Positions 4,182-13,709 of a stretch of DNA of 22,255 nucleotides are shown here, piece by piece. The translations under genes and the position numbers were made by a program. The DNA is from Deferribacterota bacterium (GTDB taxonomy: Bacteria > Chrysiogenota > Deferribacteres > Deferribacterales > UBA228), in NCBI GenBank assembly GCA_034189185.1, contig JAXHVM010000014.1:1-22255 (forward strand). The letters are read 5' to 3'. The notes under the pieces are model-generated. The model made no database searches, was not told the origin of the DNA, and saw only the letters and a program-made list of their open reading frames with translations. Numbering within the stretch: position 1 is the stretch's first letter; every line of letters starts with the position of its first letter.

Positions 4182-5288
4182 TCACACACCATAAGCCTTA
4201 TAACAACTTCTACAAACATTTGGTAGGGGATATTTTTTTAGCATATTTTCATATTTTTTGCCGTATTCACCTAAGGCAGCCATAGTCAACTCCATAGGTA
4301 AAATCCTTTCTGAAGCAATAATACGATTATTAAAAGAATCTCTAAATTCTTTATAAGCCTTGCTTTCCCATATATCAGAAAGCTCATCACTATCAATATT
4401 GCCAAAGGATAGTTTTTTTATCTCCTCATATTTATCACAAAATATCCGTTTAATATTTCCTTTTACTGGCAAATTTAGATAAACACATGGGCTAACATCG
4501 CCATTGACAGTAATAAAGATAGTATCAATGGGGCTTGCTTCACACATAGGTTGCTCACTCATTTTTATAGGGAATATTTTTAACGTTATACCTAGTTTTC
4601 TTGAGACAACCTTTGCTTTGTCTAAATAACCCTGATAACTAGTATTTACTTTACTACAGTCAAATAATTTTAATTCATCTTGAATAGACGTTGGAGTATA
4701 ATCAAGGTTTGTTGCAACTAATTCTTTAATATTAAACTTCTTCATTAAAGTTAATACTTCTGGTAATTCAGAAATATTATCTTTTGTCATCATATAAGAG
4801 AATTTTATTTGGGGATATTTTAAATTATTTTTCTTTTTGGCTGCTATAAGGCAGCTAATGTTATTTAACATATCACTTAATTTTCCTCCTCTAACCAAGG
4901 AATGAGTATGATCACTTGAGCCTCCCAATGAAAAAGCTAATATATCAATATTACTTTTCAAAAGCTCAACTATCATATTGTTATCCAATAACAGACCATT
5001 AGTGGTTAAACTTACAATACTGCCTGCCCTTTTTGCAATATTAACCATTTCAATTATATCTTTATGTAGCAAGGGCTCCCCCCACCCCTGCAGATGCACA
5101 TGCTTTGTCACCGAAAAATAATCTGACAATTTCTTATAAAGAGCAAGTGGCATATCCTCTTCAACCCATTGAACAGCTTGATCACTCCTTGGGCATATCC
5201 TACATTTTAACTGACACCTTGTAGTAGGCTCAACCTGCAAACAAAAAAACTTATATTTTCTTTTCCTCTTTAAATATCTGTTTAACAC
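4182..5288 (-). CDS. Radical SAM enzyme with a C-terminal Cys-rich auxiliary-cluster domain (SPASM/twitch-like).
   Basis: Motifs present: CQLKCRIC (Cx3Cx2C), GWGEPLL (SAM glycine-rich motif), SLTTNG. The C-terminal cysteines are CEASP..SPCVY, FCDKY and CRSCYKAYGV. The gene is convergent with the DUF1847 gene, and their stop codons are only 7 bp apart. Confidence 0.8.
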   Translation of the reverse strand: MLNRYLKRKRKYKFFCLQVEPTTRCQLKCRICPRSDQAVQWVEEDMPLALYKKLSDYFSVTKHVHLQGWGEPLLHKDIIEMVNIAKRAGSIVSLTTNGLLLDNNMIVELLKSNIDILAFSLGGSSDHTHSLVRGGKLSDMLNNISCLIAAKKKNNLKYPQIKFSYMMTKDNISELPEVLTLMKKFNIKELVATNLDYTPTSIQDELKLFDCSKVNTSYQGYLDKAKVVSRKLGITLKIFPIKMSEQPMCEASPIDTIFITVNGDVSPCVYLNLPVKGNIKRIFCDKYEEIKKLSFGNIDSDELSDIWESKAYKEFRDSFNNRIIASERILPMELTMAALGEYGKKYENMLKKYPLPNVCRSCYKAYGV

Positions 5289-9612: not shown

Positions 9613-10407
9613 CTATTTTAGCTCCAAACACACAGCTGCATTCTCAAACACTTGAAATGTTAAGGTCTCAAGGAAATATAAGCTTATATGTTTATCATTA
9701 TGACTATCATAACCAATTGATAAATCCTGCCCAAAATTTAAGATAAAATCACCACCCCTCTCTGATAAGAAAAAAACATCCTTTATATGAGGGGATACTA
9801 CAATCTTACCATCAATAGTATTCTTAACAGATTTGAGAAGTGGATAACCTTTACCATGGCTAACTATAAATTTCCATACCTCTGGTGATACTACTAATGA
9901 ATAGGGACCACCAATCCCTAGATAAACCAACTTTCCTTTTGCATCTACAATTGATTTTAATAAACTTTCTGCATCTAACGATAATGTAATAGTATCACTA
10001 ACATTCTTCTTTAAACCATCGACGTTTGCTTTCTTCATCCCGTAATATACTATCTCATCTTCTAGTTTAGATATCACACGAGCTGCCTCAATAAGTGGTG
10101 CCAAATCAGGATTTTTACACCCTCTATCTATACTATCTATCTCTTGCCTATCTAATTTGAAATATGTTTTTAGCTCTATTAATGGCTGAACATCAAAAAT
10201 TGAACATACTGTATTTTCATTGCTTTTTTCATCTAACTTTTTTAGTCTCCCCGTATTTATGACCCCAAAATCTAAACCCTTAGGCTCTTTAACATCAACT
10301 AATCTCCTTGCTGTTAGATAATTTGAAAAAGCATCCTTTGCTTGACTGAATAATTCCTTCCATGCTTTATCGCTAATTGGTGCTAATTCTTGTCTTAATA
10401 TGTTCAT
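9613..10407 (-). CDS. Family 1 encapsulin nanocompartment shell protein (HK97 fold).
   Basis: The 264-aa protein aligns by eye along its full length to T. maritima-type encapsulin (..PLIELKTYF.LD..E..ERGGDF.L..GQDLSIGY..ETLTFQV..). It has a GAGAGGT RBS. Confidence 0.9.
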   Translation of the reverse strand: MNILRQELAPISDKAWKELFSQAKDAFSNYLTARRLVDVKEPKGLDFGVINTGRLKKLDEKSNENTVCSIFDVQPLIELKTYFKLDRQEIDSIDRGCKNPDLAPLIEAARVISKLEDEIVYYGMKKANVDGLKKNVSDTITLSLDAESLLKSIVDAKGKLVYLGIGGPYSLVVSPEVWKFIVSHGKGYPLLKSVKNTIDGKIVVSPHIKDVFFLSERGGDFILNFGQDLSIGYDSHNDKHISLYFLETLTFQVFENAAVCLELK

Positions 10408-10429
10408 TTATTACCTCTCTCTCTTATTT

Positions 10430-10783
10430 TTATTTTAATTTTCCAATATTTAGACTACTATTTGGTTTATAGCTACTTTCTTCACTTGATGCCTCATTTC
10501 CTTCTATTGAGACTATATCTTCCTTTGTAAATAGATAAGTTTTCAAAGCTTCATCCCAAAAGCCCATATTTCTTCTAAGCCATTCAATTGCCATTACTGC
10601 ATGTTCAATCTCCTCATCCCTGTGATGTTCTAACATCCTTCTTAAACCTTCATCTTTGCAGACATCAACCCTTTGTTGGTACCAATTTACCGCTTCGACC
10701 TCTTCCTTTAGCGTATTTAATGCCCTAACAATATTTCTTGTTTCTTCGGATAACTCTTCAGTTGGTTCATGATAATCTGACAT
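10430..10783 (-). CDS. Encapsulated ferritin-like cargo protein (EncFtn) with a C-terminal encapsulin targeting peptide.
   Basis: It has the ferritin-like ExxH motifs (RRMLEHHRDEEIEHAVMAIEWLRR) and a flexible acidic/Ser-rich tail ending in SLNIGKLK, which matches the encapsulin cargo-loading peptide consensus. It lies 22 bp upstream of the shell gene on the same strand. Confidence 0.85.
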   Translation of the reverse strand: MSDYHEPTEELSEETRNIVRALNTLKEEVEAVNWYQQRVDVCKDEGLRRMLEHHRDEEIEHAVMAIEWLRRNMGFWDEALKTYLFTKEDIVSIEGNEASSEESSYKPNSSLNIGKLK

Positions 10784-10853
10784 ATATTCACCTCAATATA
10801 TTTATTTTTGTTATAATTATATATTAAAATATAAATTCTACAATAGTAAAATA

Positions 10854-10876
10854 GAAAGGCCTTTCAAAGGCCTTTC
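10854..10876 (-). terminator. Stem-loop (GAAAGGCC ... GGCCTTTC) downstream of the peroxiredoxin copy A stop. It may be a bidirectional terminator.
   Basis: An 8-11 bp perfect inverted repeat spans 10854..10876, with an A/T run on either side. It lies between the prx-A stop at 10908 and the EncFtn promoter region. Confidence 0.5.
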
Positions 10877-10907
10877 TATAATTATTTTATAAATTGTTAA
10901 AATAACG

Positions 10908-11630
10908 CTAATAAAGTGTTGAATAAGTAGGATTCCACACCTTCCATACATTACCTTCTAAATCTTCACTTGGGGTTAGGGTTATTTTGCCTGGCAACCA
11001 ACCAGCAGGCAATACCTCTCCTGTCTCTTTATTGTATTGTAATGCTTTAACCTGTCTAATTGTCTCATCTATATTTCTACCAACAGGTGGTGTTAAAACC
11101 TCCATAGCCCTTACTATACCATCGGGATCTATTATAAACCTACCTCTAATATCAACCTTACCTTCTTCATCATAAACATTATACAATCTCCCAATGCTAC
11201 CACCTGGATCAGAAAGCATAGGAAATTTTACTCCCCCTTCAATCATTTTCTTTAATTCTTTTTCTTGCCATTCTTGATGAGATTCAACAGAATTTACACT
11301 AACACTTAAAACCTCTACATTTAAAGATTTCAAAATATTGTATTTGGCAGCAACTGCTGTCAATTCGGTTGGTCAAACAAATGTAAAATCACCTGGATAG
11401 AAACACAATAGCACCCATTTGCCCTTATAATCAGAAAGGGAAACCCTTTTAAATTCACCATCGTGAAAGGCATCTGCAGTAAAATCTGGAGCAGGCTTAT
11501 CAACTTTAACAATATTCACATTATCTGAGCCAACACCGCTATTTTGCGCAAAAAGCTTGCCATCTACAACAAAAAGTCCCACTAATAAAATAGCTAAAAA
11601 TAGGCAATATTTACCTAATAGCCTACACAT
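10908..11630 (-). CDS. Peroxiredoxin copy A (AhpC/TSA family) with an N-terminal signal or anchor segment and an in-frame TGA at the peroxidatic Cys position. It is a candidate selenocysteine peroxiredoxin. The alternative is a nonsense-disrupted pseudogene.
   Basis: Track ORFs 11373..11630 and 10908..11363 are one frame separated only by TGA at 11375..11373. The translation reads ..[14 protein letters not shown]-[TGA][11 protein letters not shown]... The paralogue reads ..FYPRDFGIVCPTELTALAAKY... The frame is intact through to the shared C-terminus NPTYSTLY. It has its own AGGAGGTGA RBS and promoter. Confidence 0.55.
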
Positions 11631-11656
11631 ATATCACCTCCTATGCTTTTATTAAA

Positions 11657-11684
11657 ATTCTAACATAGATAAAATAATTGTCAA
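11657..11684 (-). promoter_or_regulatory. Candidate promoter for prx copy A (TTGACA-16-TAGAAT on the minus strand).
   Basis: The minus-strand TTGACA lies at 11684..11679 and TAGAAT at 11662..11657, about 20 nt upstream of the RBS and ATG at 11630. Confidence 0.4.
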
Positions 11685-11837
11685 CATAAGTTAATAATTA
11701 TTTTAAAAATAATTATAAACAAAAACTAAATAAAGATAATCTTCTTCAATATAGAATAGATAACCAACTGTACGTGCATAACACTTGATATTTATGAACT
11801 TATGATATAATATACAACCTGTTTTATTGGAAAGCTT

Positions 11838-11888
11838 ACGAAATTTAATGTAAATGCAATTGTAAAAAGCAGGGATGTCCAATCAAAT
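11838..11888 (+). pseudogene. Orphan 5' fragment of the thioesterase-like gene at the duplication junction. This is the first 51 nt of the gene, with ATG changed to ACG.
   Basis: The fragment ACGAAATTTAATGTAAATGCAATTGTAAAAAGCAGGGATGTCCAATCAAAT matches 12981..13031 except for the start codon. The duplicated promoter at about 11775..11810 is retained upstream of it. Confidence 0.6.
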
Positions 11889-11892
11889 TAAA

Positions 11893-11955
11893 GTATTTTA
11901 TGCTCTAACAATATTTCTTGTTTTATCTAATAATTCTTCAGTTAGCTCATAACAA
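11893..11955 (-). pseudogene. Orphan 5' fragment of the EncFtn gene (codons ~3-20) at the duplication junction. The start codon and RBS have been deleted.
   Basis: The sequence 11893..11955 is homologous to 10713..10775 (..CTAACAATATTTCTTGTTT..CTTCAGTT..). A ~30-bp deletion removes the ATG and RBS. Confidence 0.55.
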
Positions 11956-11984
11956 TCAAACACAAATTCTACAATATTAAAGTA

Positions 11985-12006
11985 GAAAGGCCTTGCAAAG
12001 ACCTTT
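11985..12006 (-). terminator. Degenerate copy of the terminator hairpin, downstream of prx copy B.
   Basis: The sequence GAAAGGCCttgcaaaGACCTTT forms a stem with one mismatch. Its position is the same as the hairpin in unit A. Confidence 0.4.
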
Positions 12007-12028
12007 AAATTAATAATTTAATATAATA

Positions 12029-12778
12029 TTAGTAAAGCGTTGAATAAGTTGGATTCCATTCCTTCCATACATTACCTTCTAATTCATCACTTGGGGTTAG
12101 GGTTGTTTTACCAGGTACCCAACCATCTGGCAGAACTTCTCCTGTCTCCTCATTATGTTGTAAAGCTTTTATCCGTCTAATAGTCTCATTTATATATCTA
12201 CCGGCTTGCGGTGTTAAAACATCCATTGCTCTTACTATACCATCGGGGTCTATTATAAAACTAGCTTTCAAATCAACTTTGCCTATAGATTTGCCCATAA
12301 CAACCAAACCTTCTTCATCATAAACATTATACAATCTCCCAATGCTACCATCGGGATCAGAAAGCATAGGAAATTTTACTCCCCCTTCAATCATTTTCTT
12401 TAATTCTTTTTCTTGCCATTCTTGATGGGATTCAACAGAATTTACACTAACACTTAAAACCTCTACATTTAAAGATTTCAAAATATTGTATTTGGCAGCA
12501 AGTGCTGTCAATTCTGTTGGGCAGACTATCCCAAAATCACGTGGATAGAAATGTAAAAGTACCCATTTGCCCCTATAATCAGATAATGAGACCTTTTTAA
12601 ATTCACCATCGTGAAAGGCATCTGCAGTAAAATCAGGAGCAGGCTTATCAACTTTAACAATATTCACATTATCTGAGCCAACACCGCTATTTTGCGCAAA
12701 AAGCTTGCCATCTACAACAAAAAGTCCCACTAATAAAATAGCTAAAAATAGGCAATATGTGCCTATACATTTGTTCAT
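12029..12778 (-). CDS. Peroxiredoxin copy B (AhpC/TSA family), Cys-containing, with an N-terminal hydrophobic signal or anchor. It has no C-terminal resolving Cys.
   Basis: It has FYPRDFGIVCPTEL with the peroxidatic Cys present. Where typical 2-Cys Prx has the resolving EVCP Cys, the C-terminus reads EVLPDGW. Relative to copy A it carries a 27-nt in-frame insertion (LVVMGKSIG). It has an AGGAGGTGA RBS. Confidence 0.85.
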   Translation of the reverse strand: MNKCIGTYCLFLAILLVGLFVVDGKLFAQNSGVGSDNVNIVKVDKPAPDFTADAFHDGEFKKVSLSDYRGKWVLLHFYPRDFGIVCPTELTALAAKYNILKSLNVEVLSVSVNSVESHQEWQEKELKKMIEGGVKFPMLSDPDGSIGRLYNVYDEEGLVVMGKSIGKVDLKASFIIDPDGIVRAMDVLTPQAGRYINETIRRIKALQHNEETGEVLPDGWVPGKTTLTPSDELEGNVWKEWNPTYSTLY

Positions 12779-12804
12779 ATATCACCTCCTAAATCGAGGA
12801 TGGT

Positions 12805-12832
12805 ATTGTAACACAGATAAAATTATTTTCAA
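12805..12832 (-). promoter_or_regulatory. Candidate promoter for prx copy B (TTGAAA-16-TACAAT on the minus strand).
   Basis: The minus-strand TTGAAA lies at 12832..12827 and TACAAT at 12810..12805. The position is the same as the prx-A promoter. Confidence 0.4.
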
Positions 12833-12927
12833 CATAAGTTAATAATTATTTTAAAAATAATTATAAGCACACTCTACATAAAATATATTCTCATCAATAT
12901 GGAGAGCTTGTTATATGATTATATTCC

Positions 12928-12956
12928 TTGATAATTATGAACTTATGATATAATAT
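12928..12956 (+). promoter_or_regulatory. Candidate promoter for the thioesterase-like gene (TTGATA ... TATAAT).
   Basis: TTGATA at 12928..12933 and TATAAT at 12949..12954, giving a 15-nt spacer. The alternative -10, TAATAT, gives a 17-nt spacer. A duplicate of this promoter exists at about 11775..11810. Confidence 0.3.
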
Positions 12957-12980
12957 ACAACCTGTTTTATTGGAAAGCTT

Positions 12981-13709
12981 ATGAAATTTAATGTAAATGC
13001 AATTGTAAAAAGCAGGGATGTCCAATCAAATGGCTATATTAGATTTCCCCATTTAGTTAGAATATTTCAGAATTCAGCATTTAAACACTCGGATTATCTT
13101 GGCTTAACACAAGATATACTTCTGAAAAATAGACTAGCATGGGTTTTATATTCAATGTATGTTAAAGTATATAATTATCCTAAATTAAATGACAATTTAT
13201 CAATAACAACATGGGTGGATAGCAAGCAAAAAATATTAATAAAGCGAGATTATCAAGTGACAAATAATAATACACCTATTTTAGATGCAACCTCCTCTTG
13301 GGTATTGTTTAATTTAGATAAAAGGCAAGCTATGTTTATCCCTGACAATATTTACTATATCTATGAACCTGAATATGAAAATATCTTATCCAAAGAAGAA
13401 AATAAATTGCCTTTTTATAATAATATTAATTATAATTACTATTATGAATTTACAATACGTCACATGGATTTAGATTCTAATGATCATGTAAATAATATTA
13501 CATATATAGATTTTATCTATACAGCAGTTTATAGAATGCTAAAAAAACCTGTATATATAAAAACGTTAAATATTATATATAAAAAAGAGATAACTTTAGA
13601 TGTCGAGAAAGTAAACATTCAATTAAATAACGATTCAGAGCAATTTAATTTTAAAATTGTTAATGACAACAACCTCTATTCCTATGGATTTTTACAACTA
13701 TATAAATAG
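12981..13709 (+). CDS. Acyl-ACP thioesterase-like protein with a double hotdog fold.
   Basis: The 242-aa protein has a C-terminal hotdog region with LDSNDHVNNITYIDFI (D..HVNN..Y) and an N-terminal ..NGYIRF..L..FQ..A..H region that resembles FatA/B-type thioesterases. Family assignment is from memory. Confidence 0.55.
   Translation: MKFNVNAIVKSRDVQSNGYIRFPHLVRIFQNSAFKHSDYLGLTQDILLKNRLAWVLYSMYVKVYNYPKLNDNLSITTWVDSKQKILIKRDYQVTNNNTPILDATSSWVLFNLDKRQAMFIPDNIYYIYEPEYENILSKEENKLPFYNNINYNYYYEFTIRHMDLDSNDHVNNITYIDFIYTAVYRMLKKPVYIKTLNIIYKKEITLDVEKVNIQLNNDSEQFNFKIVNDNNLYSYGFLQLYK

Follow-up and report, generated by a model that had tools for sequence, protein, structure and literature searches.

The stretch analyzed here is a 22,255-bp window, one contig (JAXHVM010000014.1) of a metagenome-assembled genome (MAG) of a Deferribacterota bacterium, which contains two neighbouring genes, prxA and prxB, coding for AhpC/TSA-family peroxiredoxins (Prx) and lying in two head-to-tail units of about 1.15 kb. 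prxA carries an in-frame UGA codon at the peroxidatic position and is, judging from its sequence, a genuine PrxU selenoprotein gene; prxB codes for a cysteine (Cys) paralogue that has lost two residues invariant in this family. The two copies are nearly identical along some tracts and clearly diverged between them. Taken as a whole, these features are best explained by a duplication within the genome, after which the selenocysteine (Sec) copy A was kept, the Cys copy B was derived and crippled, and gene conversion recently acted between both, a history that we consider probable. All coordinates are those of the whole window (Table 1).

Tandem units and their mosaic identity

The original prediction for this locus, made from the sequence without database searches, had proposed two head-to-tail units, and both were recovered by local alignment and by a repeat finder, with a start-to-start spacing of 1121-1180 nt and boundaries only ~5 nt away from those proposed. 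Two gene fossils lie at their junction. The first is the 5' end (51 nt) of an acyl-ACP (acyl carrier protein) thioesterase gene, identical to the intact gene at 50/51 nt, the sole change being the predicted ATG to ACG at the start codon. The second is a 5' coding fragment of the gene for encapsulated ferritin (EncFtn), which matches the intact gene at 57/70 nt, is ~82% identical to the EncFtn genes of two related loci (L087 and L083, see below) and is devoid of its start, unit B lacking the 49 nt that hold the EncFtn start codon, ribosome-binding site (RBS) and -10 element (10778-10826 in unit A). The homology of both fragments to the 5' ends of the neighbouring genes, on which the proposed breakpoint depended, was checked and holds. 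The unequal crossing-over invoked to explain it stands as regards the fossils and their arrangement, but not as a crossover between homologous DNA: microhomology at the junction is at most 1-2 nt (a single T common to both parental sequences), indicating that the founding event was an illegitimate join.

Divergence between the units is mosaic, as had also been proposed. Within the prx genes, two tracts are 98.4-99.4% identical and the two blocks that alternate with them are 79.8-82.5% identical (chi-square for converted vs unconverted segments, p=5e-14). The pooled synonymous divergence between A and B (dS, Nei-Gojobori) is 0.04 in the two tracts vs 0.58 in the two diverged blocks, and orthologues differ from A within the same tracts by a dS of 0.39-0.59. 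This 14-fold synonymous contrast does not come from selection at the protein level, and can be explained by gene conversion or an equivalent recombinational overwrite. The conversion that had been suspected was borne out by a permutation in the style of GENECONV (run outside the original GENECONV and RDP programs) of the 251 polymorphic columns in an alignment of A, B and four orthologues, in which the A-B concordant run of 63 polymorphic sites in tract 1 had p<=1e-4 and the second-longest run, in tract 2, p=0.006. The non-coding parts of the units are mosaic too: a third near-identical tract, covering the thioesterase 5' untranslated region (UTR) and the adjoining 51 nt of coding sequence (CDS), shows 2 differences in 105 nt between A and B vs 8-10 differences to L087, and in the operator/-35 region the copies have 3 differences in 50. 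Between the fossil thioesterase start and the operator of prxA, the spacer (11719-11783) is ~45% different from its counterparts in B, L087 and L081, which differ mutually by only 15-24% over the homologous stretch; a thioesterase promoter region that has become useless may be decaying freely there, or the segment may have been replaced.

The selenocysteine copy and its cysteine paralogue

prxA comprises 240 codons, with the UGA at codon 86. Its whole product, with U entered as C, scores 324.1 bits against the hidden Markov model (HMM) NF040737 (peroxi_PrxU), whose equivalog cutoff is 270. The active-site motif PxxxTxxU is present (P79-G-D-F-T83-F-V-U86), and PrxA keeps the catalytic Arg in the strand ahead of FIIDPDG, which sequence alignment to PDB entries identifies as the canonical YRGLFIID Arg. 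The family was surveyed in 174 loci from many phyla, with the help of wider scans of genome and metagenome contigs with B, which returned only PrxU genes of at most 59% identity. The peroxidatic site is TGA in 170 of the 174 loci and Cys in 4, and TGA is also found in 5/5 distinct close orthologues of prxA.

The UGA of prxA is followed by a hairpin, UGACAGC-AGUU-GCUGCCA, that folds between positions +14 and +31 from the U of the UGA and corresponds to a selenocysteine insertion sequence (SECIS). A hairpin at +14..+31 is a family feature: across 143 distinct Sec sequences, taken 42 nt past the UGA, it has a four-base loop R-G-U-Y in which R and Y covary, the G of the loop lying at +22 (141/143) and its U at +23 (143/143). 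The covariation alignment (125 sequences, 8 pairs) has 92.1% of its cells paired and 170 cells changed on both sides, a value reached by none of 500 shuffles, and partners slid out of register pair at 27-80%. The covarying columns are third codon positions, and the signal is therefore one of RNA structure and not of protein conservation. An Rfam scan of 10400-13200 (E<=10) returned chance matches only and no SECIS family, no check having been made that Rfam includes a model of this type of SECIS.

Changes private to A in the unconverted blocks, mostly 3' of the UGA, comprise 18 synonymous and 4 non-synonymous ones (ratio 0.06), a purifying selection which implies that the region after the UGA is translated. 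A reading of the TGA as a nonsense mutation, with prxB as the working gene, was rejected, since all orthologues carry TGA and purifying selection after it is strong. From this conservation we infer that the organism decodes Sec. The N-termini of PrxA and PrxB (11541-11630 and 12689-12778) consist of a hydrophobic, signal-like segment common to Deferribacterota PrxU, and residues 1-35 of the AlphaFold model of PrxB have a predicted local distance difference test score (pLDDT) below 50. In most other PrxU the N-terminus is instead extended and includes a Cys that is nearly invariant, possibly a resolving one. The hydrophobic segment suggests that both proteins may be exported and, if this is true, an exported selenoprotein peroxiredoxin would require a periplasmic reductant.

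PrxB departs from the family in several respects. In its active-site motif, FYPRDFGIV-C-PTE, Gly replaces the Thr of PxxxT, and thus the PxxxTxxU/C motif is absent; the strand that should carry the catalytic Arg reads LKASFIIDPDG, with Lys instead. Thr and Arg are present in 174/174 PrxU loci, including all 4 natural Cys forms, and an alignment with solved 2-Cys peroxiredoxins equates the residues altered in PrxB with the canonical DFTFVCP Thr and YRGLFIID Arg. Against NF040737, PrxB reaches 269.8 bits and narrowly misses the cutoff of 270. Downstream of its TGC codon, prxB retains a fossil SECIS hairpin, in which the stem is intact and the conserved G of the apical loop has been lost (ACUU). 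The 27-nt in-frame insertion (LVVMGKSIG) that the prediction had described in copy B is indeed present; it was found at this site in 0/174 homologous loci and is, therefore, derived in B. In the AlphaFold model, PrxB keeps the Prx fold (pLDDT >90, and 81 for the active-site block), and a PDB sequence search likewise places it in the AhpC/Prx1 fold. The insertion falls in two 10-residue blocks (151-170) with a mean pLDDT of 61-69 and contains strands at 158-160 and 163-165, and is modelled as an extra beta-hairpin just ahead of the strand that normally carries the catalytic Arg. It is very unlikely, on these residue changes, that PrxB acts as an efficient peroxidase.

prxB is not simply a dead gene. 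Changes private to B in the unconverted blocks comprise 25 synonymous and 32 non-synonymous ones, with a per-site ratio of non-synonymous to synonymous change (pN/pS) of 0.37 (p=2.6e-4 vs neutrality), and neutral simulations with the observed substitution spectrum left the blocks free of stops in only 5-6%, pointing to partial purifying selection. Either copy B has taken on a different role as a paralogue, or it has lost constraint only lately. One could envisage PrxB as a fully functional Cys peroxidase used under selenium scarcity, as in the Sec/Cys isoenzyme pairs of Methanococcus: its reading frame is intact, its promoter-like site is accompanied by the same AGGAGG and upstream palindrome as in prxA, its pN/pS is significantly below 1 and the Sec/Cys difference has been preserved between two conversion tracts. 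A backup of this kind should, however, retain the full catalytic apparatus, and PrxB, which lies just under the PrxU equivalog cutoff, has neither the Thr nor the Arg that 4/4 natural Cys-type PrxU keep. In many peroxiredoxins this Arg is reported to be essential, and at the Thr position Ser is tolerated whereas residues devoid of a hydroxyl are not (PMC7231847), which makes a selenium-starvation backup quite improbable. It has also to be considered, as a tentative and rather doubtful possibility, that PrxB is a selected, neofunctionalised and exported protein with the PrxU fold, without selenium or peroxidase chemistry, that would have acquired a new thiol role (sensor, chaperone or partner of A). 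Selection would in that case contribute to the lack of conversion in the active-site block, since sequence transferred from B to A at this place would abolish the activity of the Sec enzyme, and the locus would be a bacterial Sec-to-Cys transition of the Prx family caught in the act and coupled to remodelling of the catalytic site.

The mosaic bears on this question, since the prediction had held that differences were kept around the Sec/Cys site. Differences are found there, but they are not neutral divergence of the flanks: they removed the invariant Thr and the SECIS loop G, and those of the C-terminal block removed the catalytic Arg of B. On the 3' side of the active-site block, the B-private differences end with the SECIS loop base, 21 nt past the Sec/Cys codon, and the next difference lies 74 nt further on. 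A slightly longer conversion tract would restore UGA in B if it ran from A to B, and would bring TGC and Gly into A if it ran in the opposite direction; selection against B-to-A transfer at this block is plausible. Heteroduplex extension stalls in 80%-identical DNA, and such identity alone could have kept the block unconverted, so that selection and the mechanics of recombination are not separable from the sequence.

Relatives, polarity and rival histories

Close relatives were found through contigs that encode the truncated 151-aa open reading frame (ORF) downstream of the TGA. They comprise six loci of one relative (L081-L086), two loci of a second one (L087-L088) and two more distant lineages (L089/L090 and L091-L094), and all of them have a single prx with TGA; two prx copies occur in 0/174 family loci. 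This comparison, which had been put forward as a check, therefore shows prx to be single-copy and of the Sec form throughout the close relatives. L081-L088 share the synteny of the window (thioesterase, prx split at the TGA, EncFtn, encapsulin, methyltransferase and a metallo-beta-lactamase (MBL)-fold gene). The window is 90-91% identical to L087 and ~86% to L083, uniformly on both flanks of the duplication, which, together with the single-copy relatives, makes the duplication specific to the lineage of the window among the sampled genomes. A hybrid of L081-like and L087-like genomes, with a crossover at prx, was discarded because both flanks show these same identities. The single-copy UGA in 5/5 distinct close orthologues establishes the polarity: the Sec copy A is ancestral and the Cys copy B derived.

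Across the unconverted blocks, B is 65 sites away from A, 61 from L087 and 71 from L081, and A is 26 away from L087 and 33 from L081; states shared exclusively with B number 3 in A, 5 in L087 and 4 in L081. The dS between A and B in these blocks is 0.58 vs 0.30-0.40 to the nearest relative. Given these distances and the few A-shared states, the blocks of B are no recent copy of A, and separated from it at about the time when the three lineages split. A recent duplication without conversion, in which young copies diverged through accelerated, selection-driven or error-prone change in B only, would agree with the distribution of private changes, most of which are on B (~43-57 vs 6-22 for A). It is highly improbable, though, because the 14-fold dS contrast is beyond what selection on the protein could produce, B lacks most of the derived states of the A lineage in the blocks and the non-coding parts of the units are equally mosaic. 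An old duplication with recent conversion fits better.

The same distances can be turned in favour of an additive import, in which unit B or its old blocks came from a related strain or species, integrated illegitimately beside the resident gene and were later subjected to conversion. B is, in the blocks, no nearer to A than to L087 or L081 and shares more exclusive states with these two than with A; in addition, related populations co-occur (ERZ27283337 has both L082 and L087), and other local mosaics exist (the 5'UTR and first 7 codons of A are L081-like, and L089 is mosaic vs L091). This origin is nevertheless improbable. No donor-like sequence was found among 5.8 billion proteins, the next match after B being only 78% identical and A-like; the B-private changes hit residues invariant in 174/174 loci, which a functional foreign orthologue would not have; and the units begin and end exactly as they would if the local segment, with its fragments of the flanking genes, had been duplicated head to tail.

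According to the history favoured here, the ancestral locus would have had a single copy, in the order thioesterase (divergent), prxU (Sec), EncFtn and encapsulin, the last three in the same direction. A segment of ~1.15 kb would have been duplicated in tandem through an illegitimate join of the thioesterase 5' end to the EncFtn 5' end, leaving the two truncated fossils. Copy A, adjoining EncFtn, would still be a working selenoprotein gene whose UGA is recoded by an fdhF-like SECIS 11 nt downstream (7-bp stem, RGUY loop). Copy B, adjoining the intact thioesterase, would have become independent of selenium through the change of UGA to UGC and the loss of the SECIS loop G, and would then have undergone the Thr to Gly and Arg to Lys changes and gained the 9-residue beta-hairpin. 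Recently, a RecA-type gene conversion would have overwritten no fewer than three tracts, namely codons 8-61 and 94-156 of prx and the 5' region of the thioesterase gene, with the active-site and C-terminal blocks retaining the old divergence. The fossil SECIS being still visible, the order of events is readable as codon change, loss of the SECIS loop G and then loss of catalytic residues. If the duplication took place in the genome, it must be as old as the blocks; the relatives with one copy then either had already branched off or have since collapsed theirs, as recombination between tandem copies leaves no scar.

Several points weigh against this history. Conflicting informative sites leave the age and origin of the old blocks of B ambiguous: they could derive from an in-genome duplication later lost in the relatives or from import from a related strain. 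The direction of conversion is not determinable, given that A and B each show 31 differences from L087 in the converted tracts. Regarding the decay of PrxB, Lys for Arg is a conservative change and a residual activity is possible; conversely, a pN/pS below 1 averages the whole history of the B branch, and a recent loss of constraint is possible. As for Sec decoding, the window contains none of selA, selB, selC and selD, and no tRNA gene was detected in it. Lastly, the whole case rests on a single MAG contig: exact look-ups of the prxA fragment and of the prxB protein found no independent assembly on record (the copy B product has one entry in the protein collection, 'MAG: peroxiredoxin [Deferribacterota bacterium]', from one contig), and an exact 31-mer spanning the junction had no match in Joint Genome Institute (JGI) metagenome contigs.

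This last point leads to the possibility of an assembly artefact, with strain variants concatenated or blocks mis-phased across identical tracts of 160-190 nt; such tracts exceed typical k-mers, related strains co-occur in similar samples and the junction was found in no other assembly. The decayed junction, with its 81% identical EncFtn fragment, 49-nt deletion and ATG to ACG change, is nonetheless nothing that an assembler would make from allelic variants, and the canonical features are all on A and the aberrant ones all on B, a biologically coherent phasing. An artefact is hence scarcely credible.

Recombination has left further traces in and around these genes. The first 7 codons of prxA and its 5'UTR (11610-11656) show 10/53 differences to L081 vs 17/52 to L087, although over the whole genome L087 is the closer of the two, and the first 7 codons of prxB are L087-like (2/20 differences); this pattern suggests extra recombination between co-occurring populations or a hypervariable region. 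The prx genes of L089 and L091 are also mosaic between themselves: a run of 57 polymorphic sites (p=0.003; alignment columns 125-339) is identical in both, after which 25 differences separate them in the C-terminal block. This is a hint of frequent recombination within prxU in the group.

Both prx genes are preceded by sigma-70-like promoters (pattern matches only) and by the same AGGAGG ahead of the ATG. Just upstream of both -35 elements lies a perfect 23-bp palindrome, ATAATTATTTT-A-AAAATAATTAT, which has 2 perfect matches in the window vs 0.04 expected and whose conservation extends to L087 and L081. By its form it is a candidate Fur/PerR-type operator for the divergent promoters of prx and of the thioesterase and ATP-binding cassette (ABC) transporter genes; L089, one of the more distant relatives, has a FUR gene in its prx locus. 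The terminator-like hairpin that follows prxA has a weakened homologue after prxB (~11982-12010). On the plus strand, Peripla_BP_2/FecCD/ABC transporter genes come after the thioesterase, and the remaining genes of the window code for radical S-adenosylmethionine (SAM), DUF1847 and C_GCAxxG proteins. In the relatives, prx is followed by EncFtn (116-117 aa) and encapsulin in L081-L088 and only by a 97-aa EncFtn-like gene, with no shell gene ahead of the methyltransferase, in L091-L094; L089/L090 have neither EncFtn nor encapsulin at the locus, and a TonB-dependent receptor and Fur are located upstream. The radical-SAM/SPASM gene is intact in the window (4182-5288, 368 aa) and has in L081 an in-frame stop (10404-10406) at the position of Gly233; its gene calls are split (232 aa + 121 aa) in L081-L084, the stop itself having been read in L081, and L085 and L086 end before the gene. 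A second selenoprotein was rejected here, as the stop aligns with Gly and not with Cys, and it is probably a nonsense mutation or subject to read-through.

Table 1. Position of the features of the prx locus in the window
Feature	Position	Strand	Basis and remarks
Encapsulin shell gene, family 1	9613..10407	minus	PF04454 (7.5e-70), NF041155; context only
EncFtn gene, intact, downstream of prxA	10430..10783	minus	PF22277 (1e-38), TIGR04535; context only
Unit A	10708..11888		EncFtn 5' coding end, prxA terminator, prxA, promoter/operator, fossil thioesterase 5' end; local alignment, repeat families D1-D6
Terminator-like hairpin after prxA	10851..10879	minus	Repeat family D6
prxA, AhpC/TSA-family peroxiredoxin	10908..11630	minus	Translation; NF040737; Pfam AhpC-TSA and 1-cysPrx_C
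Unconverted C-terminal block (codons 157-241)	10908..11162; partner 12029-12283	minus	82.5%, 44 differences/252 nt; dS 0.59, dN (non-synonymous) 0.11
Converted tract 2 (codons 94-156)	11163..11351; partner 12311-12499	minus	98.4%, 3 differences/184 nt; dS=0.06
SECIS hairpin of prxA	11345..11362	minus	Fold; loop G at 11354
Unconverted active-site block (codons 62-93)	11352..11447; partner 12500-12595	minus	79.8%, 21 differences/104 nt; dS 0.56, dN 0.15
UGA (Sec) codon of prxA	11373..11375	minus	Conserved as TGA in orthologues and family
Converted tract 1 (codons 8-61)	11448..11609; partner 12596-12757	minus	99.4%, 1 difference/163 nt; dS=0.03
Sigma-70-like promoter of prxA, TTGACA-16-TAGAAT, TG extension	11657..11684	minus	Consensus scan, 11/12; pattern match
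Perfect 23-bp palindrome	11694..11716; identical copy 12842-12864		Candidate operator
Third near-identical tract (thioesterase 5'UTR and first 51 nt of CDS)	11784..11888; partner 12927-13031		98%
Fossil thioesterase 5' end	11838..11888	plus	Match to 12981-13031
Fossil EncFtn 5' coding fragment, 70 nt	11888..11957	minus	Match to 10708-10777
Unit B	11889..13031 (repeat start 11888/9)		Fossil EncFtn 5' fragment, weakened terminator, prxB, promoter/operator, first 51 nt of intact thioesterase
prxB, Cys paralogue, 249 codons	12029..12778	minus	Translation; NF040737 score just under cutoff
27-nt in-frame insertion of prxB	12284..12310 (placement +/-3 nt)	minus	Alignment
Fossil SECIS hairpin of prxB	12493..12510	minus	Stem intact; loop ACUU (AGUU in prxA), G to C at 12502
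TGC (Cys) codon of prxB in place of UGA	12521..12523	minus	Translation, alignment
Sigma-70-like promoter of prxB, TTGAAA-16-TACAAT	12805-12832	minus	Consensus scan, 10/12; pattern match
Acyl-ACP thioesterase gene, intact, divergent from prxB	12981..13709	plus	PF01643, PF20791; context only

Comparison with known systems

The processes at work in this locus are ordinary ones: PrxU selenoproteins, bacterial SECIS hairpins, tandem duplication with gene conversion and Sec/Cys paralogue pairs are all already known, and the locus is a good teaching example and neither a new kind of system nor a change of paradigm. Specific to it are a bacterial Sec-to-Cys event in the Prx family with its SECIS fossil, the later loss of two catalytic residues and tract edges close to the recoded codon. 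It is also an annotation trap, as the apparently broken prxA is the real functional gene and the intact-looking prxB, annotated as 'peroxiredoxin' in the source record, is the aberrant copy. Gene callers split a prxU containing TGA into ORFs of ~85 aa and 151 aa or read the TGA as Trp, and with UGA in 170/174 loci the public protein sets systematically misrepresent the family. Among the PrxU entries affected are P0002, P0003, P0004 and P0009; P0002 was discarded as a full-length Trp or Cys form, since its DNA has TGA and its 'W' is a genetic-code artefact of the gene caller.

PrxU, a Sec peroxiredoxin, was initially reported from Eubacterium acidaminophilum (Soehling et al. 2001, cited in PMC7231847). 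PrxA resembles this family in its score above the cutoff, its PxxxTxxU motif, its catalytic Arg and its SECIS hairpin, and also in lacking a resolving Cys at the 2-Cys position (Leu in PrxA, Thr in most members). It differs in that prxA belongs to an iron/oxidative-stress island beside EncFtn and encapsulin, the Cys-containing extension of most members is replaced in its product by a hydrophobic, signal-like N-terminus, and it has a tandem Cys paralogue whose product does not have the features that define the family.

In the SECIS of Escherichia coli fdhF, SelB binds the apical loop, with G23 and U24 exposed ~20 nt after the UGA. The prxA hairpin is alike in starting 11 nt past the UGA and in its 7-bp stem, four-base RGUY loop and GU at +22/+23, and unlike in having no identified bulged U and no Rfam match.

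Concerted evolution of bacterial duplicates by gene conversion is known for tufA/tufB in Salmonella and for rRNA operons. The prx copies share with them the tracts of near identity inside an older divergence, supported here by the run-length test, but they are adjacent and functionally unequal, and conversion ends at most 21 nt from the Sec/Cys codon. The locus offers a small natural instance of gene conversion acting on adjacent genes of unequal function, with a tract edge right beside the codon that decides on the use of selenium.

Pairs of Sec and Cys isoenzymes are formed by the hydrogenases and formate dehydrogenases of Methanococcus. The prx locus is similar to them in having a Sec gene and a Cys paralogue in one genome, in the Sec-to-Cys direction and in the fossil SECIS of prxB; it differs in that PrxB, with two catalytic residues lost, is no equivalent enzyme, and in that it concerns the Prx family. 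According to a 2026 review (PMC13188914), replacements of Sec by Cys in bacteria are rare and occur mainly in FdhA and SelD, and no Prx case is listed in it. Within the PrxU survey, an Acidobacteriota MAG (L006, L006:6139) has a Cys-type PrxU (TGC) whose SECIS hairpin is still intact (GGCGGCGGUCGCCGCC), and another Acidobacteriota MAG (L005, L005:6139) has TGA followed by 45 nt identical to those of L006, which on this sequence identity is taken as an independent and recent Sec-to-Cys replacement in L006. The older Cys forms (L027, L153 and L170) have lost the hairpin. prxB and L006 are, thus, examples of Sec-to-Cys replacement in Prx in which the SECIS is visible as a fossil.

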